Shown piece after piece: positions 7,345-48,384 of a stretch of DNA of 64,000 nt (the stretch's first letter is position 1; the number at the start of each line of letters is the position of its first letter). A program made the translations under genes and the position numbers. Source of the DNA: Escherichia coli. Lineage in GTDB: Bacteria > Pseudomonadota > Gammaproteobacteria > Enterobacterales > Enterobacteriaceae. The stretch is from assembly GCF_003018115.1 (NCBI RefSeq), contig NZ_CP027457.1, one strand, 5' to 3'. The notes beneath the pieces were generated by a model that had not been told where the DNA came from, searched no databases, and saw nothing but the letters and a program-made list of their open reading frames with translations.

Positions 7345-8359
7345 CGTTTTTCCCTTATAATTACAGACGCGCACTAGCTGTGCTGGGTTAGCAATAATCC
7401 AACATTTTTATCCTGATTATGTTTATAAAAGCGAACGTTTGCTTAATAACTAACGTAAGTGGACCAGTTCTTCTGAGTGAACTTAAATGGAGTAGCAACA
7501 GTTAATTATAATAACGTTGCCATACAAACGCTATGCTCTTGCATGCTATGTACCTTTATATATTTATCAATCGGATACGAATCTAATAATAACCCTCATC
7601 ATTAATGCAACTAATCTTATCTATATATCATGTGATATGTTCTGTAACAAGTAAAATCAACATAAAAAATTCAGCAAAATTTAATATTCGTTCAACTAGC
7701 CGTCTCACATATGACATTATTAGTCAACTCCATTTGCCACAAAATGGCTATTTCATGGAACACAGTAATTTCTTAGTGGCTATTATCAAGCTAATTCTTA
7801 GGTCCCTAGCGATTATTCCTGGCTGGTTCGTCAGTTTAAGCCATGAGATTGTTACATTCCTTTTTATCCTGGAGATATGGGGGAACGCAGGAGACGATTT
7901 TTTCATCTACATTCGTTGGTAAATATGGCTTTGGTCACTGCGACTTAAACCTTCCTCAATCACAGCCATTCGCCGGGCGATACGGCAAACAAACTAAGTG
8001 AAACATCATCCTGAAAACACCAACATCAACAAGCCTCTCCAGATCGACTTCAGAAGTGACCAGTTACAAGCCACAAACCAGGAAACATATTTCATGATGA
8101 GAATTATGCTCAGCCTGATGGCGGGTAAACACTGATTTTCATCAAACTCACTGAGTTAGCTTGCAAAGCTTTCCTTGTTTAGACTCTAAATAAATTATTT
8201 ATAAAACAAATATTTAAACGAAGATCTTTAGTTTTTGAAGACCACCGCAAGTGTTCGTCTGGCTTCACATGGCATCTTCCTCTTAGAAAAAGATCGACAT
8301 ATTTTGTGACACGAATTGCAAATCTGGTTTTGTTGTATGGATTGCGTGATTTTTGATCT

Positions 8360-8378
8360 GGTATAACAGGTATAAAGG
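8360..8378. promoter_or_regulatory. Putative NanR operator (tandem GGTATA repeats: GGTATAACAGGTATAAAGG) in the fimB-nanC intergenic region
   Basis: Two GGTATA hexamers spaced as in NanR operators, read directly; location in the long AT-rich intergenic region known to carry NanR/NagC sites controlling fimB and nanC. Confidence 0.5.
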
Positions 8379-8788
8379 TGCACCAAGATAGTCAATGAGA
8401 CAGGGCATCTCGCAATCTCTGGCAAACATCACTTCAGTTCTTTCTCATCGGGTGATGAAAACGCACTTCAGTCTGAAAGGAATATGAAAATGAGATCAAC
8501 AGACACTCTATTTTATGACTCTGGGTAAAATGAATTGAGTAAGTGATATAGCTTACGAACATTCAAATCAATTAAACATCAGAAGAGATTTTATACTCAG
8601 GTATTTAATCTGGCTCTCTGTTTATTTAAATAATGTGGAAAGAGAATTTTCACAGGAGACCTTATACAAAAAATATAAAATAAGCTACCCGTTGCCAAAG
8701 ACACTATAAGCCTGGCAAAAAATATTACACAACATAAATGCTAATTGTTTATGCGGGCTTTGTTTTGCTTTCTGTATCCTACAAATGA

Positions 8789-9514
8789 GTGAAATTTATG
8801 AAAAAGGCTAAAATACTTTCTGGCGTATTATTACTGTGCTTTTCGTCACCATTAATTTCTCAGGCTGCGACACTGGACGTACGTGGTGGATATCGTAGCG
8901 GAAGCCATGCCTATGAGACTCGACTCAAAGTCAGTGAGGGATGGCAAAATGGATGGTGGGCAAGCATGGAAAGTAATACCTGGAATACCATTCATGATAA
9001 TAAAAAGGAAAATGCCGCACTCAATGATGTTCAGGTTGAAGTTAATTACGCGATTAAACTTGATGAGCAATGGACGGTGCGCCCGGGAATGTTAACGCAT
9101 TTTAGCAGCAACGGCACACGCTACGGACCCTACGTAAAACTGTCCTGGGACGCGACAAAAGATCTTAATTTTGGCATTCGCTATCGTTACGACTGGAAAG
9201 CTTACCGACAACAAGACTTATCCGGTGATATGTCTCGTGATAACGTTCATCGTTGGGATGGATATGTCACTTACCATATTAATAGTGATTTCACCTTCGC
9301 ATGGCAAACGACGCTATACAGCAAACAGAACGATTATCGCTATGCAAACCATAAGAAATGGGCGACGGAAAATGCATTTGTTCTACAATACCATATGACG
9401 CCCGATATTACGCCATACATAGAATATGACTACCTGGACCGTCAGGGTGTTTACAACGGCAGAGATAATTTATCGGAAAACAGTTATCGCATTGGTGTGT
9501 CATTTAAACTGTAG
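8789..9514 (+). CDS. nanC: N-acetylneuraminic acid outer membrane channel NanC (KdgM family)
   Basis: 241-aa ORF with signal peptide ...LLLCFSSPLISQAATLDVRGG and beta-barrel porin-like sequence ending in F-K-L. Confidence 0.9.
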   Translation: MKFMKKAKILSGVLLLCFSSPLISQAATLDVRGGYRSGSHAYETRLKVSEGWQNGWWASMESNTWNTIHDNKKENAALNDVQVEVNYAIKLDEQWTVRPGMLTHFSSNGTRYGPYVKLSWDATKDLNFGIRYRYDWKAYRQQDLSGDMSRDNVHRWDGYVTYHINSDFTFAWQTTLYSKQNDYRYANHKKWATENAFVLQYHMTPDITPYIEYDYLDRQGVYNGRDNLSENSYRIGVSFKL

Positions 9515-9533
9515 TAGACAGGAGACAGTCACA

Positions 9534-10640
9534 ATGAATAAAACAATAACGGCGCTTGCTATCATGATGGCTTCATTTGCCGCAAACGCGTCTGTATTAC
9601 CGGAAACTCCTGTGCCATTTAAAAGTGGTACCGGAGCAATTGATAACGACACTGTCTACATTGGTTTAGGTAGCGCAGGTACGGCATGGTACAAGCTGGA
9701 TACACAGGCCAAAGATAAAAAATGGACAGCGTTAGCTGCATTCCCTGGTGGAACAAGAGATCAAGCAACCTCGGCATTTATTGATGGCAATCTGTATGTG
9801 TTTGGCGGCATTGGCAAAAATAGCAAGGGCTTGACTCAGGTATTTAATGACGTACACAAATACAACCCCAAAACCAATAGTTGGGTTAAATTGATGTCGC
9901 ACGCACCGATGGGCATGGCAGGTCATGTGACTTTTGTACACAACGGCAAGGCTTATGTTACTGGCGGTGTTAACCAGAATATCTTCAATGGCTATTTTGA
10001 AGATCTCAACGAGGCTGGAAAAGATTCAACCGCTGTAGATAAAATCAACGCTCACTATTTTGACAAAAAAGCAGAAGATTATTTCTTCAATAAGTTTCTG
10101 TTGTCTTTTGATCCCTCAACACAGCAATGGAGTTACGCTGGCGAATCTCCCTGGTACGGAACGGCTGGTGCGGCGGTTGTGAATAAAGGTGATAAAACCT
10201 GGCTTATTAATGGTGAAGCCAAACCAGGATTGCGAACGGATGCCGTATTTGAACTTGATTTCACCGGTAATAATTTAAAATGGAATAAGCTTGCTCCCGT
10301 CTCATCACCAGATGGCGTCGCTGGCGGTTTTGCGGGGATAAGCAATGATTCTCTTATATTTGCCGGAGGGGCCGGATTCAAAGGTTCACGAGAAAATTAC
10401 CAAAACGGTAAGAACTATGCGCATGAAGGCCTGAAAAAATCATATAGCACTGATATTCATCTTTGGCATAACGGGAAATGGGATAAATCGGGTGAATTAT
10501 CGCAAGGTCGGGCCTACGGAGTATCATTGCCCTGGAATAATAGTCTATTGATTATTGGCGGTGAAACTGCAGGCGGCAAAGCGGTGACGGATTCAGTTTT
10601 GATCTCTGTGAAGGATAATAAAGTTACAGTACAAAACTAA
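9534..10640 (+). CDS. nanM: N-acetylneuraminate mutarotase NanM (Kelch-repeat protein)
   Basis: Internal start MNKTITALAIMMASFAANA at 9534 with RBS GGAGA upstream; 368 aa, repeated GG/W Kelch-like motifs. Confidence 0.88.
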   Translation: MNKTITALAIMMASFAANASVLPETPVPFKSGTGAIDNDTVYIGLGSAGTAWYKLDTQAKDKKWTALAAFPGGTRDQATSAFIDGNLYVFGGIGKNSKGLTQVFNDVHKYNPKTNSWVKLMSHAPMGMAGHVTFVHNGKAYVTGGVNQNIFNGYFEDLNEAGKDSTAVDKINAHYFDKKAEDYFFNKFLLSFDPSTQQWSYAGESPWYGTAGAAVVNKGDKTWLINGEAKPGLRTDAVFELDFTGNNLKWNKLAPVSSPDGVAGGFAGISNDSLIFAGGAGFKGSRENYQNGKNYAHEGLKKSYSTDIHLWHNGKWDKSGELSQGRAYGVSLPWNNSLLIIGGETAGGKAVTDSVLISVKDNKVTVQN

Positions 10641-10704: not shown

Positions 10705-11685
10705 ATGAACGCAATAATATCGCCTGATTATTACTATGTTCTTACCGTTGCTGGTCAGTCTAATGCCATGGCGTATGGCGAAGGACTGCCATTACCGGAC
10801 AGGGAAGATGCGCCTCATCCAAGAATTAAACAATTAGCGAGATTTGCGCATACGCATCCCGGAGGCCCGTCATGTCACTTTAACGACATTATTCCACTGA
10901 CTCACTGCCCACACGATGTTCAGGATATGCAGAGTTATCACCATCCTCTGGCAACGAATCATCAAACACAGTACGGCACCGTTGGCCAGGCACTGCATAT
11001 TGCACGGAAATTACTGCCCTTTATTCCTGATAACGCAGGGGTTCTCATCGTTCCATGTTGCCGTGGCGGATCGGCTTTTACCGCGGGCAGCGAGGGGACA
11101 TATTCAGAACGGCACGGAGCCAGCCATGATGCTTGTCGTTGGGGAACGGATACTCCGCTGTACCAGGATTTAGTCAGCAGAACGCGAGCCGCACTGGCAA
11201 AAAATCCGCAGAACAAATTCCTCGGCGTATGCTGGATGCAAGGCGAATTTGACTTAATGACCAGTGACTACGCGTCACACCCTCAACACTTTAATCATAT
11301 GGTTGAAGCCTTTCGTAGGGATCTAAAACAATACCATTCTCAGCTGAATAATATTACTGACGCGCCGTGGTTTTGCGGCGATACCACCTGGTACTGGAAA
11401 GAAAATTTCCCTCATGCGTATGAAGCTATTTATGGCAATTATCAAAATAATGTTTTAGCCAATATTATTTTCGTCGACTTCCAGCAACAAGGTGAAAGAG
11501 GACTGACGAACGCGCCTGATGAAGATCCGGACGATTTAAGCACGGGATATTACGGTTCAGCGTACCGGTCACCGGAGAACTGGACGACGGCACTGCGAAG
11601 CAGTCATTTCAGCGCGGCAGCCCGTCGGGGGATTATTTCTGACAAGTTTGTAGAAGCAATTTTGCAGTTTTGGCGCGAAAGGTGA
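10705..11685 (+). CDS. nanS: 9-O-acetyl-N-acetylneuraminate esterase NanS (SGNH hydrolase)
   Basis: Start MNAIISPDYYYVLTVAGQSNAMAYG, 326 aa; GQSN block typical of SGNH esterases. Confidence 0.88.
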   Translation: MNAIISPDYYYVLTVAGQSNAMAYGEGLPLPDREDAPHPRIKQLARFAHTHPGGPSCHFNDIIPLTHCPHDVQDMQSYHHPLATNHQTQYGTVGQALHIARKLLPFIPDNAGVLIVPCCRGGSAFTAGSEGTYSERHGASHDACRWGTDTPLYQDLVSRTRAALAKNPQNKFLGVCWMQGEFDLMTSDYASHPQHFNHMVEAFRRDLKQYHSQLNNITDAPWFCGDTTWYWKENFPHAYEAIYGNYQNNVLANIIFVDFQQQGERGLTNAPDEDPDDLSTGYYGSAYRSPENWTTALRSSHFSAAARRGIISDKFVEAILQFWRER

Positions 11686-11839
11686 GCGTTCATTAATTTG
11701 ATTTATTCGCATCCATCAGCGCTTTTAACTCCTCCGGCGTAAACGGTGGTTTGCGTCGGTGCAACATCGCATGGCAATTAGGGCACACAGGCAGCAAAAA
11801 AACAAATGAGATCAAAGTAATATATCTTCACTTGCAGGC

Positions 11840-12769
11840 TTGAACAGCAGAAAATTTGCGAGCATGATCGCAATTATTTCACTGCCAGGGATATCAATGG
11901 CTTCCAGTAAATCGCTACAGCAGGCAATTGCCAACATAAAAATCTGGCACAAGGGTGAACAGCGCGCGCCGCATAAGCCATTGTTATTGCTATACGTATT
12001 AGCGGGATACCTGAATGGACATCCACGCCTTTTCGATTATGGCTCGGAAATCTACGAACCTCTGCACAGTTTACTGGAACGTTTTGGGCCACAGCGTTCA
12101 CAGTACCGACCTGATATGCCGTTCTGGCGATTACAAGGCGACGGATTCTGGCAATTACACAATGCCGAGCTTTGCTCAACAGCAGGGAGCAGCCGACAAC
12201 CGCCAGTGAAGGAACTGAACGAATACCACGTTGCAGGCGGTTTCGATGAACAGCACTACGCCCTGGTAACCGGCAATAAAAAACTCATTAATACTCTGGC
12301 ACAACAGATACTCGAAGCGCACTTCACCGAGAGTATTCAGGAAGAAATCGCTGACGAGTTGGGTTTTGACCTCCAGCAAATCCGTAAGCAACGCGACCCG
12401 TTATTTCGCAGACTTGTATTACGCGCCTATAACTACCAGTGCGCGATATGTGGCTTTAATATGCGCCACGATGACACTACCGTCGCGCTGGAAGCGGCAC
12501 ATATAAAATGGAAACAGCACGGCGGTCTTTGTGAAATTCCTAATGGCCTGGCGCTTTGCGCAATTCACCATAAAGCCTTTGATAAAGGATCGATTGGCCT
12601 GGACGAAAATATGCGGGTACTGGTATCAGATGCGGTAAACGGCGGAGGGATCGTTGAGAGATTATTCTGGGATTTTGACGGGAAAACTATTGCGTTACCA
12701 CAGGTGCGTAAAAATTACCCTTTTGAGGGGTTTGTAGAGTGGCATCGGAAAGAGGTTTTTAGGGGGTGA
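11840..12769 (+). CDS. HNH-motif endonuclease with an uncharacterised N-terminal domain (possible modification-dependent restriction-type nuclease)
   Basis: 309-aa ORF; C-terminal YQCAICGF...AAHIKW...LCAIHHKAFDKG is a Cys/His HNH-type motif. An alternative start MASSKSLQQ at 11897 has an AGGGA RBS. Family assignment of the N-terminal domain is not possible by eye. Confidence 0.7.
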   Translation: MNSRKFASMIAIISLPGISMASSKSLQQAIANIKIWHKGEQRAPHKPLLLLYVLAGYLNGHPRLFDYGSEIYEPLHSLLERFGPQRSQYRPDMPFWRLQGDGFWQLHNAELCSTAGSSRQPPVKELNEYHVAGGFDEQHYALVTGNKKLINTLAQQILEAHFTESIQEEIADELGFDLQQIRKQRDPLFRRLVLRAYNYQCAICGFNMRHDDTTVALEAAHIKWKQHGGLCEIPNGLALCAIHHKAFDKGSIGLDENMRVLVSDAVNGGGIVERLFWDFDGKTIALPQVRKNYPFEGFVEWHRKEVFRG

Positions 12770-12810
12770 GATTGATAACTATCGCAGTATGTTCAATATT
12801 GCTGACATAA

Positions 12811-12993
12811 TCAGTGCAGGATCTTGCCGCTAGTTTACAACTCGCCTTCGATAGCGGCGCAAAACGAGTTCTGTTGCCGATATCCTCGGCTATGGATATT
12901 CCAACAGTTCCGGCAGAGTTGTTTACCAAGTTTCAGGTAAGTTTTTTCTCAGAACCGGTTGATGCGGTTTATAAGGCGCTGGATGTGAATTAA
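12811..12993 (+). pseudogene. Remnant encoding the C-terminal ~60 aa of a Lon-like protease domain (BrxL/Lon-type)
   Basis: Frame opens just after a TAA at 12808-12810 and reads ...SGAKRVLLPISSAMDIPTVPAELFTKFQVSFFSEPVDAVYKALDVN*, which resembles the extreme C-terminus of Lon proteases (...GIKTVLIP...IP...V...EVL..AL). No upstream body of the gene is present. Confidence 0.5.
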
Positions 12994-13326
12994 CACATTC
13001 CTCAGCTTATTTACAAAAGGATTATTCCCATTTGATATAATATCAGTGCCAATTTACTTTTTTCAATGAAATATATCTCGGCTAAATAACAATAAAACTT
13101 ATCGCTAATGGATTAAATAAACAATTTTCTAATTCATTTCACCACCTTTGATATAGAAATTGATGGTGTTGTCGTTGCCATTGCTTATGGTGATGATAAA
13201 ATCCACGTTTCTGGATCGTTGCGTAGAAAATCATCACTGCCTTGATATTTTGATGCGATATAATCATACCGTTCCGTAGTACCAATTTCAATTTCAGGCT
13301 AAACCCCAACATTAAAAAAAATTAGA

Positions 13327-13375
13327 GTTATTCACTGATTATATTATATTATCAATAATATAATCAGTGAATAAC
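13327..13375 (-). terminator. Perfect 21-bp inverted repeat (7-nt loop) downstream of the 682-aa ORF, followed on the minus strand by a T8 run; probable intrinsic terminator
   Basis: GTTATTCACTGATTATATTAT / ATAATATAATCAGTGAATAAC arms read directly; T-run lies about 6 nt past the stem on the minus strand. Confidence 0.55.
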
Positions 13376-13397
13376 ATGGACTATATAATAAATTGCT

Positions 13398-15446
13398 CTA
13401 ATCATTTCCCTTACGAATATATGGGCCAAAAGCCCAAGAATCATAATAAGGGTGATGGACTAATTTTTCATTAAATCGAACACTATAAGTTAATTTTTTT
13501 ATATTTTTACGTACAGCATTAATACTGGGCAAAGAGGAAAGATAATCTATAAACTTATCGATAGTGATTTCCCCTTCGCAACACTCAAACCCATCAATGA
13601 TATTTTTCGCCATTTTTCCATTTTCATTTGTTTGATATATCACTCCAGGTATTCGTTGAAAAAAACTAGATAATGCATATTTGTCCGCTACATATGTATC
13701 ATCCACATGATATTTCCCACCGAGCATAGTTGTAGTAACAATAAGCTTATACACACCTTTGGGTTGCCATGTTGATGGTAGTTCGAATTCTTTAATGATC
13801 ACATCAAGATGATTAAGATAATGTTCAGAAATTCGATTTATTTGTTGAAAATAAGAACGCATAAATTTATTATTATGATCATGTATTAATGAGCTATCTC
13901 CAACGATGTTACACACTTGCTGATAGTACTTACCATAATATATTGGTTGACCATTTGATTTTAGTTCTGTAAAAATCAAAAAATCATCCAGGAGAATCAC
14001 GCAATCGCACTGATAATTAGCATGAGCATCAATTGAAGAAGCTTTAATCCCCGCATCACGAACTTGTTTTATAAATTGTTGCTCATGAAATCGCCCTTTA
14101 CTTGCTTGAGAAATTTTTTTGGAACCAAATAATGACATTAGAGAGCGAGTCACTGAGCTATTTGCTATTAATGCAGGCATTAAGCATAAACCGTCCATAC
14201 AGGGAATAAATGGGCAATCATTAAGATCATGTGATTTTGAATTGAAGGTAAAATAATCTATCAGTTTTTTTGCTGCATCCGCTGCAATCCCCTTACGTTG
14301 AAAGAATGATAACCAACTCTCACGGCTTTTTATGATCAGCCAGCGATCCAACTGTAGGGGTATAGGTTTTGTCGATGAAAATCTTTTGCTCATTTCTTCT
14401 TTAGATAACTCGACTAAACATTGATAAGCGTGCACCCAATTAAATAATGATATATTCCCATATTCTTCATGAAGGTCATCAGGAGACATATTTTCCAACT
14501 CGCTTAGATGAAATGAGCTAAAAACGCCATCAGAATTTAAGTAAGATGGCATATGATCCTTTACCCAACTATTTAGATGAAAATGTTTGTTACTAAATTC
14601 ATGAACTTCGCTATATAGATGTGACGCTCTCATCATTAGTCTATTTCTTGCAATCTCATAATCTCGGTATAAACAAAAACTATCAACCTCAAGAGAGTAA
14701 ATGTTATTATCCAATTTTGTAAATACTGCACTACTTAGTCTGAAAAAGTCTCTTACTCTGCTTAATGAGTCAAAAACATTCCACTCATTAAGGTACCCTC
14801 CCATTGAAAGCAAGGTTTGTTTATTCACACAAGAAGTTAGTTTCAATGGCCCATGAGTCCGTAAATAAGAAAATATTCTTCCGGTGTAATTGGCTACCTC
14901 ATCAAATGCCCTATCGATAACTCGAAAATATTCGATATCAGGTTCAGCATGAATATTAATATTTTCAGAAACGATAAATAATGGAAAAATCCTCTTCATT
15001 TTTTTAGGATCATTGACCACAACCAAGGATGATAATGATGATAAAAACATCTCACAAAACATGATGAGATTAAGTATTAATGCATGTGATTTTTTTGTAT
15101 TTTTACGCCAAATACCAGCACATTTTGTAGCCGCAAAGAAAGAATTATTTATATCATGCATAATTTTACATTGACTCTCGAACTCAGAGATTAGTTCAAT
15201 GTTATCAGGAAATGAGTTTACTAGCTCATTAATACATTTTTTGAATGTATTGTTATACTCAACTTCAGTCTGAACTGAAAATCTATTATAATAGATGGAA
15301 GATATTCTCAGCACATCCAAGGCGATATCTATACTAATATCATCTCTTTTTATGTACTCACAAAAAAAAGAACAAAACTGTTTCGGGTCGTTAGCAAGAT
15401 TACTAATTCTAGTAGTATCATAAACTTTTTCCATTTTTCCATACAT
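13398..15446 (-). CDS. Orphan AT-rich 682-aa protein of unknown function; candidate defence or nuclease protein with a possible PD-(D/E)XK-like motif
   Basis: Uninterrupted 2 kb ORF with RBS AGGA before the ATG; composition visibly far more AT-rich than flanking core genes; no Walker A, HNH or other motif I recognise except E~455 ... D~481 ... E494-L-K496 (QCDCVILLDDFLIFTELK). Confidence 0.75.
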   Translation of the reverse strand: MYGKMEKVYDTTRISNLANDPKQFCSFFCEYIKRDDISIDIALDVLRISSIYYNRFSVQTEVEYNNTFKKCINELVNSFPDNIELISEFESQCKIMHDINNSFFAATKCAGIWRKNTKKSHALILNLIMFCEMFLSSLSSLVVVNDPKKMKRIFPLFIVSENINIHAEPDIEYFRVIDRAFDEVANYTGRIFSYLRTHGPLKLTSCVNKQTLLSMGGYLNEWNVFDSLSRVRDFFRLSSAVFTKLDNNIYSLEVDSFCLYRDYEIARNRLMMRASHLYSEVHEFSNKHFHLNSWVKDHMPSYLNSDGVFSSFHLSELENMSPDDLHEEYGNISLFNWVHAYQCLVELSKEEMSKRFSSTKPIPLQLDRWLIIKSRESWLSFFQRKGIAADAAKKLIDYFTFNSKSHDLNDCPFIPCMDGLCLMPALIANSSVTRSLMSLFGSKKISQASKGRFHEQQFIKQVRDAGIKASSIDAHANYQCDCVILLDDFLIFTELKSNGQPIYYGKYYQQVCNIVGDSSLIHDHNNKFMRSYFQQINRISEHYLNHLDVIIKEFELPSTWQPKGVYKLIVTTTMLGGKYHVDDTYVADKYALSSFFQRIPGVIYQTNENGKMAKNIIDGFECCEGEITIDKFIDYLSSLPSINAVRKNIKKLTYSVRFNEKLVHHPYYDSWAFGPYIRKGND

Positions 15447-16123
15447 CCTATTGTCTAAATTACTATAAAACTAGCCACTTAACTAATAATTATAAATTTC
15501 ATCTTTTACACCTTGCATTTTTATAACCAATGAAATCTACAACAAGCAACTGATGGATAATCCGATATTGGTCGCATTTAATGGCATGGTAGCAAAGTTT
15601 TCATCACATACCTCCTTTGCACCAGAATAAACGCCAGAGACCTGAAATTGCGAGTACACTACAGAAATTGTACTGCCGGTCCCATCAGCATAAAACCATA
15701 GTTACACAGGTAATCATCATTATTCGCCAAGATAATAAATATTATTCGGTAGAATAGCGTTCTCAGGTGGTCAGTAAAATTGTCTTCAACAAGATGTCTG
15801 CGCATCTCGTCTGCTAGCCCTACATAACTGCTCTCGACCGAAACTATTTATTGAATGTTCACCAAGGTGGGCGTGGAGACAAAATGACGTCTTTTGATAT
15901 TAGCTACCTGAGCCACATGGTCAAAACGTTCAAGTAGCATAGCGAAACCACCCTGCCCACGTAATGTGGACGATGCAGCTTCCAGCCAGAGCAAACTTGG
16001 GACCATCGACTACAAAATGAAGAATACTGAACTGCTTTTCTGGCAGGCCTATATACTGCACGGATATGGGTGATTTCAGGCACAAAAAAAGCCGCCCTTA
16101 AGCGACTCGATTTGCATACGGTG

Positions 16124-16208
16124 TGGTGCCGAAGGCCGGACTCGAACCGGCACGTATTTCTACGGTTGATTTTGAATCAACTGCGTCTACCGATTTCGCC
16201 ACTTCGGC
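16124..16208 (-). tRNA. leuX: tRNA-Leu (leuX-type, CAA anticodon), 85 nt ending CCA
   Basis: Reverse complement reads GCCGAAGTGGCGAAATCGGTAGACGCAGTTGATTCAAAATCAACCGTAGAAATACGTGCCGGTTCGAGTCCGGCCTTCGGCACCA; type II tRNA with long variable arm. Confidence 0.9.
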
Positions 16209-16403: not shown

Positions 16404-17423
16404 ATGTCGATGATAAAAAGCTATGCCGCAAAAGAAGCAGGCGGCGAACTGGAAGTTTATGAGTACGATCCCGGTGAACTGAAGCCACAAGATGTTGAAG
16501 TGCAGGTGGATTACTGCGGGATCTGCCATTCCGATCTGTCGATGATCGATAACGAATGGGGATTTTCACAATATCCGCTGGTTGCCGGGCATGAGGTGAT
16601 TGGTCGCGTGGTGGCGCTCGGGAGCGCCGCGCAGGATAAAGGTTTGCAGGTCGGTCAGCGTGTCGGGATTGGCTGGACGGCGCGTAGCTGCGGGCATTGC
16701 GATGCCTGTATTAGCGGTAATCAGATCAACTGTGAGCAAGGTGCGGTGCCGACGATTATGAATCGCGGCGGCTTTGCCGAGAAGTTGCGTGCGGACTGGC
16801 AATGGGTGATCCCACTGCCAGAAAATATTGATATCGAGTCCGCCGGGCCGCTGTTGTGCGGTGGTATCACGGTCTTCAAACCACTGTTAATGCACCATAT
16901 CACTGCCACCAGCCGCGTTGGGGTAATTGGTATTGGCGGGCTGGGGCATATCGCTATAAAACTTCTGCACGCAATGGGATGCGAGGTGACAGCCTTTAGT
17001 TCTAATCCGGCGAAAGAGCAGGAAGTACTGGCGATGGGTGCCGATAAAGTGGTGAATAGCCGCGATCCGCAGGCACTGAAAGCACTGGCGGGGCAGTTTG
17101 ATCTCATTATCAACACCGTCAACGTCAGCCTCGACTGGCAGCCTTATTTTGAAGCGCTGACGTACGGCGGTAATTTCCATACGGTCGGTGCAGTTCTCAC
17201 GCCGCTGTCTGTTCCGGCCTTTACGTTAATTGCGGGCGACCGCAGCATCTCTGGTTCTGCTACCGGCACGCCTTATGAGCTGCGAAAGCTGATGCGCTTT
17301 GCCGCCCGTAGCAAGGTTGCGCCGACCACCGAACTGTTCCCGATGTCGAAAATTAACGACGCCATCAAGCATGTGCGCGACGGTAAGGCGCGTTACCGCG
17401 TGGTTCTGAAAGCTGACTTCTGA
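16404..17423 (+). CDS. ahr: NADPH-dependent aldehyde reductase Ahr (YjgB), zinc-type alcohol dehydrogenase
   Basis: Start [21 protein letters not shown] at 16404; GHEVIG and CGICHSD zinc-ADH motifs; 339 aa. Confidence 0.9.
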
Positions 17424-17552
17424 TCTCTTTGCCGGGTGCCTGTCGCCCGGCACTTAAATCTCTTTGGAAGGCGTCTCGCAATCTGCTGAATTTAGCGGTG
17501 AAGAGTGCGCAGCCGTTGCCTATACTCCAGGCAGGAAACTGGAGGAAATCTC

Positions 17553-19055
17553 ATGAGCGAACCCCTGTTAATTGCCCGTACGCCGGACACAGAACTTTTT
17601 TTACTGCCGGGAATGGCTAACCGTCACGGGCTGATTACTGGCGCAACGGGGACGGGTAAAACCGTTACGCTGCAAAAACTGGCAGAGTCATTGTCGGAAA
17701 TCGGCGTGCCGGTGTTTATGGCTGATGTGAAAGGCGATCTGACCGGTATCGCGCAGGCAGGAACGGCGTCGGAAAAACTGCTCGCAAGGCTTAAAAATAT
17801 CGGCGTCAATGACTGGCAACCGCATGCTAATCCGGTGGTGGTGTGGGATATCTTTGGCGAGAAAGGCCATCCGGTGCGGGCGACGGTTTCAGACCTGGGG
17901 CCGCTGTTGCTGGCGCGGCTGTTGAATCTCAACGATGTGCAATCTGGCGTGCTGAATATCATCTTCCGTATTGCTGACGATCAGGGATTGTTGCTGCTCG
18001 ACTTTAAAGATCTGCGGGCAATTACCCAGTACATCGGCGATAACGCCAAATCCTTCCAGAATCAGTACGGTAATATCAGTAGCGCATCGGTTGGTGCCAT
18101 CCAGCGCGGGCTGTTGTCGCTGGAACAGCAAGGCGCAGCACACTTCTTTGGTGAGCCGATGCTGGATATCAAAGACTGGACGCGCACCGATGCCAACGGT
18201 AAAGGCGTTATCAATATCCTCAGCGCCGAGAAGCTTTATCAGATGCCGAAACTGTATGCCGCCAGCCTGTTGTGGATGCTCTCGGAGTTGTATGAACAAT
18301 TGCCGGAAGCGGGCGATCTGGAGAAACCAAAACTGGTGTTTTTCTTCGACGAAGCACATCTGCTGTTTAACGATGCACCGCAGGTACTGCTGGATAAGAT
18401 TGAGCAGGTGATAAGGCTTATTCGCTCAAAAGGCGTGGGCGTCTGGTTCGTTTCGCAAAACCCGTCTGATATTCCGGATAATGTGCTCGGCCAGCTCGGT
18501 AATCGCGTTCAGCACGCTTTACGGGCTTTTACGCCAAAAGATCAGAAAGCAGTGAAGGCAGCGGCGCAAACCATGCGGGCCAATCCGGCATTTGATACCG
18601 AAAAGGCAATCCAGGAACTGGGGACCGGCGAGGCGTTAATCTCGTTTCTCGATGCAAAAGGAAGTCCTTCTGTGGTGGAACGGGCGATGGTGATTGCGCC
18701 TTGTTCGCGGATGGGACCGGTGACGGAAGATGAGCGTAATGGCTTGATTAATCACTCTCCGGTGTATGGCAAGTACGAGGATGACGTGGACCGGGAATCC
18801 GCCTATGAGATGTTGCAAAAAGGCGTACAGGCAAGCACCGAGCAGCAAAATAATCCTGCCGTGAAAAGGAAAGAGGTAGCGGTAGATGACGGCATTCTTG
18901 GTGGATTGAAGGATATTTTGTTTGGCACTACCGGACCACGCGGCGGGAAGAAAGATGGTGTTGTGCAAACAATGGCGAAAAGCGCCGCCCGCCAGGTGAC
19001 GAATCAGATTGTGCGTGGAATGTTGGGGAGTTTGCTGGGGGGGAGAAAAAGGTAA
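17553..19055 (+). CDS. yjgR: Putative ATPase YjgR (DUF853, P-loop)
   Basis: Start [20 protein letters not shown] at 17553; Walker A GATGTGKT; 500 aa. Confidence 0.85.
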
Positions 19056-47814: not shown

Positions 47815-48204
<390 letters not shown>

Positions 48205-48384
48205 TCACTTCCTTTTTTATTTACACTTCATCATTCACACTGCCTCATCGACGACTACGCTCATTCGACCGGGTCACGTACTGCGAGTACGCTCCCCGGC
48301 CCTCATTCACTTTCCGTCTCGATGCAGTGCGAATGATTTTGTGTAATTTTTTAGTTTATAGCGCGACAGGTCGCGCCAGTTTTT

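Follow-up and report, generated by a model that had tools for sequence, protein, structure and literature searches.

In E. coli K-12, the idn cassette, which encodes the GntII/L-idonate pathway, separates ahr from yjgR. In the window, by which we mean the whole stretch of 64,000 nucleotides (64 kb) of E. coli DNA analysed here, the two genes follow each other directly. An earlier note had seen this adjacency and, from the gene order of K-12, had proposed that the strain lacks the idn locus through an indel next to the leuX hotspot. The locus raises the question of whether idn is really missing and, if so, whether it was lost by this strain or whether the junction is an old state of the site. 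Our main reading, to which we give a probability of about 0.9, is that ahr and yjgR in the window are joined by a widespread idn-less allele, one side of a presence/absence polymorphism already known for this site. The features around this junction were as follows.

16124 to 16208, minus strand: leuX, tRNA-Leu(CAA), from ARAGORN and the annotation of an identical record.
16404 to 17423, plus strand: ahr, intact, coding for an NADPH-dependent aldehyde reductase of 339 aa, from tblastn, blastn and annotation.
17424 to 17552, plus strand: the 129-bp ahr-yjgR spacer of the idn-less ('empty site') allele, from the sequence, genome counts and orthologues.
17553 to 19055, plus strand: yjgR, intact, coding for a HerA-like ATPase (DUF853) of 500 aa, from Pfam, tblastn and annotation.

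The stop codon TGA of ahr was located at 17421-17423 and the ATG of yjgR at 17553-17555, with a putative ribosome-binding site, GGAGG, at 17541-17545, 7 nt 5' of this ATG; the spacer between the two genes is exactly the interval described in the earlier note. Since the adjacency is a statement on gene order, chance is no issue for it. The Ahr protein of the window showed 99.1% amino acid identity with K-12 Ahr in tblastn, and YjgR 98.4% with its K-12 counterpart. YjgR is a full-length HerA_C (DUF853) ATPase (Pfam HerA_C, E=2e-253); among the defence-system models of PADLOC, mad8 (E=1e-19) and several HerA models also matched it moderately. The genes lptG, lptF, pepA, holC and valS are found downstream of yjgR in the same order as in K-12. 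The window is 100% identical to two ETEC records, NZ_LR882990.1 (isolate L7_E1373_ETEC) and NZ_CP024223.1 (O169:H41), the annotation of which gives the same genes at coordinates matching those of the window.

Other parts of the window showed features of their own. The region 10927-16100, a stretch of only about 5 kb with leuX on one side and a truncated sialate O-acetylesterase gene on the other, is devoid of integrase and carries an HNH remnant together with a 290-aa HNH nuclease at 11897-12769, which is annotated as a phosphorothioated-DNA-binding restriction endonuclease and has HNH and type IV REase matches in PADLOC. No Pfam or PADLOC match was obtained for the 682-aa ORF at 13398-15446 (minus strand). 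In the pepA-holC spacer (23182-23477), a 96-bp unit resembling a palindromic element of the REP/BIME type is present in 3.1 tandem copies, the 159-bp spacer of K-12 having one copy. According to the annotations, cybC (cytochrome b562, 47833-48219) is an intact CDS in the identical record and a pseudogene in K-12 MG1655.

We compared the locus with K-12. The annotation of MG1655 gives the order lptG-yjgR-idnR-idnT-idnO-idnD-idnK-ahr-leuX, with 5,126 bp from the ahr stop to the yjgR start, so that the order given in the earlier note for K-12 was correct; the possibility that ahr and yjgR are adjacent in K-12 too can be discarded, as idnK-idnDOTR intervene there. In blastn, homology between the window and K-12 stopped exactly at the ahr stop codon (17423) and restarted at 17514. 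The alignment thus bore out the proposal that the idn cluster is missing at this locus, the difference from K-12 being an indel that starts exactly at the ahr stop. A tblastn search of the 64-kb window with the five K-12 Idn proteins recovered no idn gene, the matches being the distant relatives treR, bdcA and ahr at 21-27% identity. In the same way, the 129-bp spacer held no ORF and none of idnK, idnD, idnO, idnT and idnR. Reading from the ahr stop, the window has TCTCTTTGCCGG, the hairpin, the conserved central block and the yjgR-proximal block, all described below, and the junction is that of the empty-site allele.

The spacer was then divided into the following segments by comparison with other alleles.

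17424 to 17435, plus strand: TCTCTTTGCCGG, immediately 3' of the ahr stop, from comparison with K-12, CFT073, Z1323CEC0015 and Citrobacter FP75.
17430 to 17452, plus strand: a terminator-like hairpin, from the pattern scan and fold.
17434 to 17510, plus strand: a central piece of about 77 bp, present in idn-less alleles only, from alignments.
17511 to 17552, plus strand: a yjgR-proximal block common to idn+ and idn- alleles and to Citrobacter, from blastn and alignments.

The first 10-12 bases of TCTCTTTGCCGG were found, in K-12, CFT073 and Z1323CEC0015, at the distal end of the idn region, right before the yjgR-proximal block, and Citrobacter FP75 has a slightly altered version at the same place. 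As the idn+ alleles carry this motif at the far end of the cassette, the latter is bounded by the ahr stop and by the motif. The hairpin at 17430-17452 has a 9-bp GC-rich stem UGCCGGGUG/CGCCCGGCA, a CCUGU loop and a tail CUUAAAUCUCUUU. It conforms to the Rho-independent terminator pattern with a tail that is only moderately U-rich, the pattern scan giving 1 site for 0.5 expected, and the centroid fold was of -16.7 kcal/mol with a weak z of only -1.65. By pattern match only, we regard it as a probable ahr terminator. A GC-rich hairpin of different sequence is present at the equivalent position in Citrobacter werkmanii. Within the central piece lie the hairpin's loop and 3' arm as well as a conserved block AATTTAGCGGTGAAGAGTGCG. 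In the yjgR-proximal block, TATACT at 17521-17526 is conserved across every allele and species compared; no promoter was called by a sigma-70 consensus scan of 17300-17700, and TATACT is only a candidate promoter element. The empty-site spacer would, in this arrangement, supply the terminator hairpin of ahr as well as the ribosome-binding site and promoter-proximal sequence of yjgR.

The K-12 cassette measures 5,074 bp and consists of idnK, idnDOTR and 25 bp downstream of idnR, starting directly after the ahr stop. The idn+ allele is collinear with both ends of the window spacer and differs from it in two respects, the cassette that is gained and the central piece of about 77 bp that is missing; the latter was absent from the idnR-yjgR spacer of all four idn+ alleles (K-12, CFT073, Z1323CEC0015 and FP75). 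The similarity of the central piece to the K-12 idn region was not significant, with a score of 26 compared to a shuffle maximum of 29. Because the central piece has no significant similarity to the idn region, the allele of the window cannot be made from a K-12-type allele by simple deletion.

The frequency of both alleles was determined in 5,426 complete E. coli genomes, an empty junction being counted when at least 80% of a 170-bp junction query was covered, mostly at 97-100% identity. The window-type junction, as one contiguous match over both genes, was found in 3,211-3,212 genomes (59%), among them O157:H7 strains, which have the same idn-less junction at 99.4% identity, and ETEC H10407. 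The ahr/idnK junction of K-12 was present in 2,051 genomes (38%); idn carriers include K-12, BL21, CFT073 and one APEC O2:K1:H5 strain. DNA of idn was detected in 2,055 genomes (2,038 at 80% coverage or more), at no plasmid location and in at most two places in any genome, so that idn, where present, is essentially always at the ahr junction (2,051 of 2,055). By subtraction, about 164 genomes (3%) show neither of the two standard junctions; we inspected two of them. Most E. coli genomes have the empty site, and K-12 represents the minority state.

Two unusual intervals were seen at this site. HS-02 has a variant of the empty site with an ahr-yjgR spacer of 55 bp (8972-9026 of the locus extract), in which the conserved central block and the hairpin's 3' arm have been lost through a further deletion of about 74 bp. 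In MLI104K2, the interval is 928 bp long (8959-9886 of the locus extract) and unique among the 5,426 genomes. It combines pieces resembling idnT and idnR (84-88% identity) with 40 bp that match the window spacer, and it has long homopolymer runs of C, G and T; an artefact of assembly or polishing, or a chimera of both alleles, may lie behind it. We considered from this interval that the window spacer might be a decayed 5' end of idnT, and rejected it: the interval occurs in one of 5,426 genomes, its homopolymers are artefact-like, and the similarity between spacer and idn is no better than that of shuffles.

The age of both alleles was examined in outgroups. A YjgR search of species-representative genomes gave mostly Betaproteobacteria among the matches listed and at least seven Enterobacterales loci. 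Empty sites were found in E. albertii and in C. werkmanii, with ahr-yjgR gaps of 129 bp and 136 bp, respectively, and both spacers align with the window spacer across its full length, at 93.8% identity for E. albertii, above the approximately 90% of the flanking genes, and at 75% for C. werkmanii. Citrobacter sp. FP75, the flanks of which are 91-93% identical to those of C. werkmanii, has the order ahr-idnK-idnD-idnO-idnT-idnR-yjgR at the same site, with the idnR-yjgR junction of the idn+ alleles of E. coli. Its idn genes showed 78-83% nucleotide identity with those of K-12, compared to 82-85% for the flanks, and since the two divergences are about equal, the presence of idn at ahr|yjgR is old as well. 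Each allele occurs at the same site in both Escherichia and Citrobacter; therefore, both alleles are old. Judged from these sequence comparisons, the empty site is an old allele that did not arise by a recent deletion in this strain. Between ahr and yjgR, Enterobacter cloacae and Enterobacter sp. Ag1 have a Dak1/Dak2 dihydroxyacetone-kinase-like gene of 548-568 aa, located as follows.

8217 to 9863 and 8224 to 9930 of the two locus extracts, opposite strand: the Dak1/Dak2 gene of the two Enterobacter genomes.

With this gene in the slot in Enterobacter, different genera have different carbohydrate genes at the ahr-yjgR site.

Which of the two alleles came first was less clear-cut, either polarity requiring two steps, a gain or loss of the cassette and a change of about 77 bp in the spacer. 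We lean towards an ancestral empty site, which we consider the somewhat more probable state, because the idn+ spacer retains just the left half of the hairpin and looks derived. The opposite order is possible, though doubtful: the common ancestor of Escherichia and Citrobacter would have had ahr, idn, the full spacer and yjgR, the empty site would have arisen by a single precise loss of the cassette, and the idn+ allele would have lost the 77 bp later. The divergence of FP75 and K-12 idn, equal to that of their flanks, places idn here at least as early as the split of the genera and agrees with such an order, as do the presence of idnK in Salmonella Typhimurium (bioRxiv 10.64898/2026.04.07.716905) and the fact that the hairpin could equally have terminated idnDOTR. 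It does not, however, save any event compared to the opposite polarity, and it demands a base-precise deletion of 5,074 bp with no flanking repeats; moreover, no idn+ allele with a full spacer was found among K-12, CFT073, Z1323CEC0015 and FP75, and the Enterobacter slot holds a different gene.

That a K-12-like idn+ ancestor of this strain or lineage recently lost idn, possibly in connection with a rearrangement at the leuX hotspot, is very improbable and largely refuted. The site is only 1.2 kb from leuX, the distribution of idn is patchy within phylogroups and even sequence types, so that losses do occur somewhere, and a secondary deletion at the site is known from HS-02. Against it, the 77 bp or so of central spacer were found in no idn+ allele examined, and the identical junction is that of 59% of E. 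coli, with orthologues in E. albertii and C. werkmanii. As the empty site is the majority state and the outgroup spacers are orthologous, the absence of idn should not be taken to mean that this strain has deleted it.

The position of leuX gave no support to such an event either. The 3' end of leuX, at which integrative islands insert, faces lower coordinates, away from ahr and yjgR, so that islands lie across the tRNA gene from the indel. The tRNA gene lies 195 bp upstream of ahr and 1.2 kb from the indel. We found no integrase in the cassette, the K-12 segment containing idn genes only according to its annotation; no terminal direct or inverted repeats pairing the cassette ends and no tRNA-derived repeat; and no target-site duplication when the junction sequences were compared. 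The features of a leuX island, that is, the tRNA 3' end with an adjacent integrase, and tRNA-derived repeats or a target-site duplication, were both lacking. Because the cassette is on the 5' side of leuX and has neither integrase nor repeats, the idn indel is not a leuX island event: the earlier placement next to the leuX hotspot stands as regards position and fails as regards an island event. Switching between the two alleles within E. coli would rather rely on homologous recombination in the core genes on either side than on a mobile-element mechanism.

The weakest alternative, a relocation of idn to another place on the chromosome or to a plasmid of the source genome, might be entertained with 64 kb of the genome in view and with an idonate-like cluster, devoid of DNA homology to idn, described on an APEC plasmid (PMC3251573), yet it is extremely improbable, given the ahr junction in 2,051 of the 2,055 idn genomes, the zero plasmid locations and the maximum of two places per genome, which leave at most about four genomes, the fragmentary MLI104K2 among them, that could have idn elsewhere. 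These population counts make idn improbable elsewhere in any genome with an empty junction, and we infer from them that the source genome almost certainly has no idn.

We found also a contrast in diversity between the cassette and its flanks. Pairwise nucleotide identities were compared among three idn+ genomes (K-12, CFT073 and Z1323CEC0015, phylogroups A and B2 being included). The five idn genes exhibited 98.9-99.9% identity, whereas ahr and yjgR, which abut the cassette, exhibited 93.6-97.2% and 93.4-95.0%, respectively; the next genes, lptG and lptF, were again at 98.4-99.4%. Between K-12 and CFT073, the switch in divergence lies within about 30 bp of the cassette edges. Identity to K-12 of at least 99% was observed for idn in 1,973 genomes and for yjgR in just 751. 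Most changes in the two abutting genes are synonymous, Ahr being 99.1% identical in protein compared to 96.8% in DNA. Between the window and K-12, divergence was 3-4% in ahr and yjgR compared to less than 1% in lptFG-pepA. The maximum of the aligned part was in yjgL (window 30001-32000), with 6-11% divergence from K-12 in 500-bp windows over a background of about 2%. The peak in the flanks was considered as a sign of balanced polymorphism and rejected, other places in the window being equally or more diverged; because the flanks of two idn+ genomes are equally diverged from each other, divergence does not track the idn state.

Three processes could each possibly explain the contrast: a recent species-wide spread of one version of the cassette; exchange with idn-less donors that erodes the flanks, its recombination tracts being forced to stop at the heterology; or an influx of divergent flanking sequence driven by the leuX hotspot. 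We tentatively suggest, as a conjecture, an old same-site polymorphism of Escherichia and Citrobacter in which one near-monomorphic cassette has recently spread in E. coli, with recombination tracts pinned at the edges of the heterology. If true, the cassette would be a clean natural case of an indel shaping recombination endpoints beside an integration hotspot. Hyperdiverse flanks around a near-monomorphic cassette, at a site whose two alleles are found in two genera, could be of interest for studies of recombination near indels and hotspots.

By the known role of GntII, a strain with the empty site would not use L-idonate or 5-ketogluconate via IdnD/IdnO/IdnT and would have no IdnK; GntK would be left as the sole gluconate kinase, and gluconate use would rely on GntI, encoded outside the window. 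For the ETEC O169:H41/L7-like strain, the prediction is that L-idonate and 5-ketogluconate do not support growth via GntII and that GntK is needed to phosphorylate gluconate. As the minority state, K-12 should not serve as the reference condition at ahr|yjgR.

Variation in the presence of idn is already documented, and the allele of the window is common and ordinary. In PMC8545132, idnODRKT is accessory: 83% of pks+ genomes have it, compared to about 31% of those that are pks-, and one ST95 clade is without it; in PMC5369007, idnK is missing from ST131 H30/H22 and present in H41; and accessory status in the E. coli pangenome is also given in PMC10269509. In the relevant passages of these three studies, the five idn genes are present or absent together and vary within ST95 and ST131, and our counts (38% idn, 59% empty site) agree with this accessory status. 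These passages treat gene presence or absence; the junction sequence, the outgroup state and the diversity contrast of the flanks are not discussed in them. The GntII (subsidiary gluconate/L-idonate) cluster idnK-idnDOTR of E. coli K-12 (Bausch et al. 1998, J Bacteriol 180:3704, as cited in PMC3251573) lies in this slot, flanked by ahr (yjgB) and yjgR, and both leuX and the genes on either side are collinear with those of the window. The cluster is wholly absent from the window, where the 129-bp spacer stands in place of the 5,126 bp of K-12.

The leuX integrative islands, represented in K-12 by the cryptic prophage PR-Y with an intB pseudogene, are in the same neighbourhood as the idn site, but they have an integrase and occupy the 3' end of leuX, whereas the idn cassette is beyond ahr, on the 5' side, and is devoid of integrase and repeats. 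The Dak1/Dak2 gene of Enterobacter shares with idn the slot and a role in carbohydrate metabolism, and differs in being an unrelated cargo of a single gene on the opposite strand. Segments that K-12 has and O157:H7 lacks are called 'K-islands' or 'K-loops', and, like them, idn is a strain-specific segment between backbone flanks.
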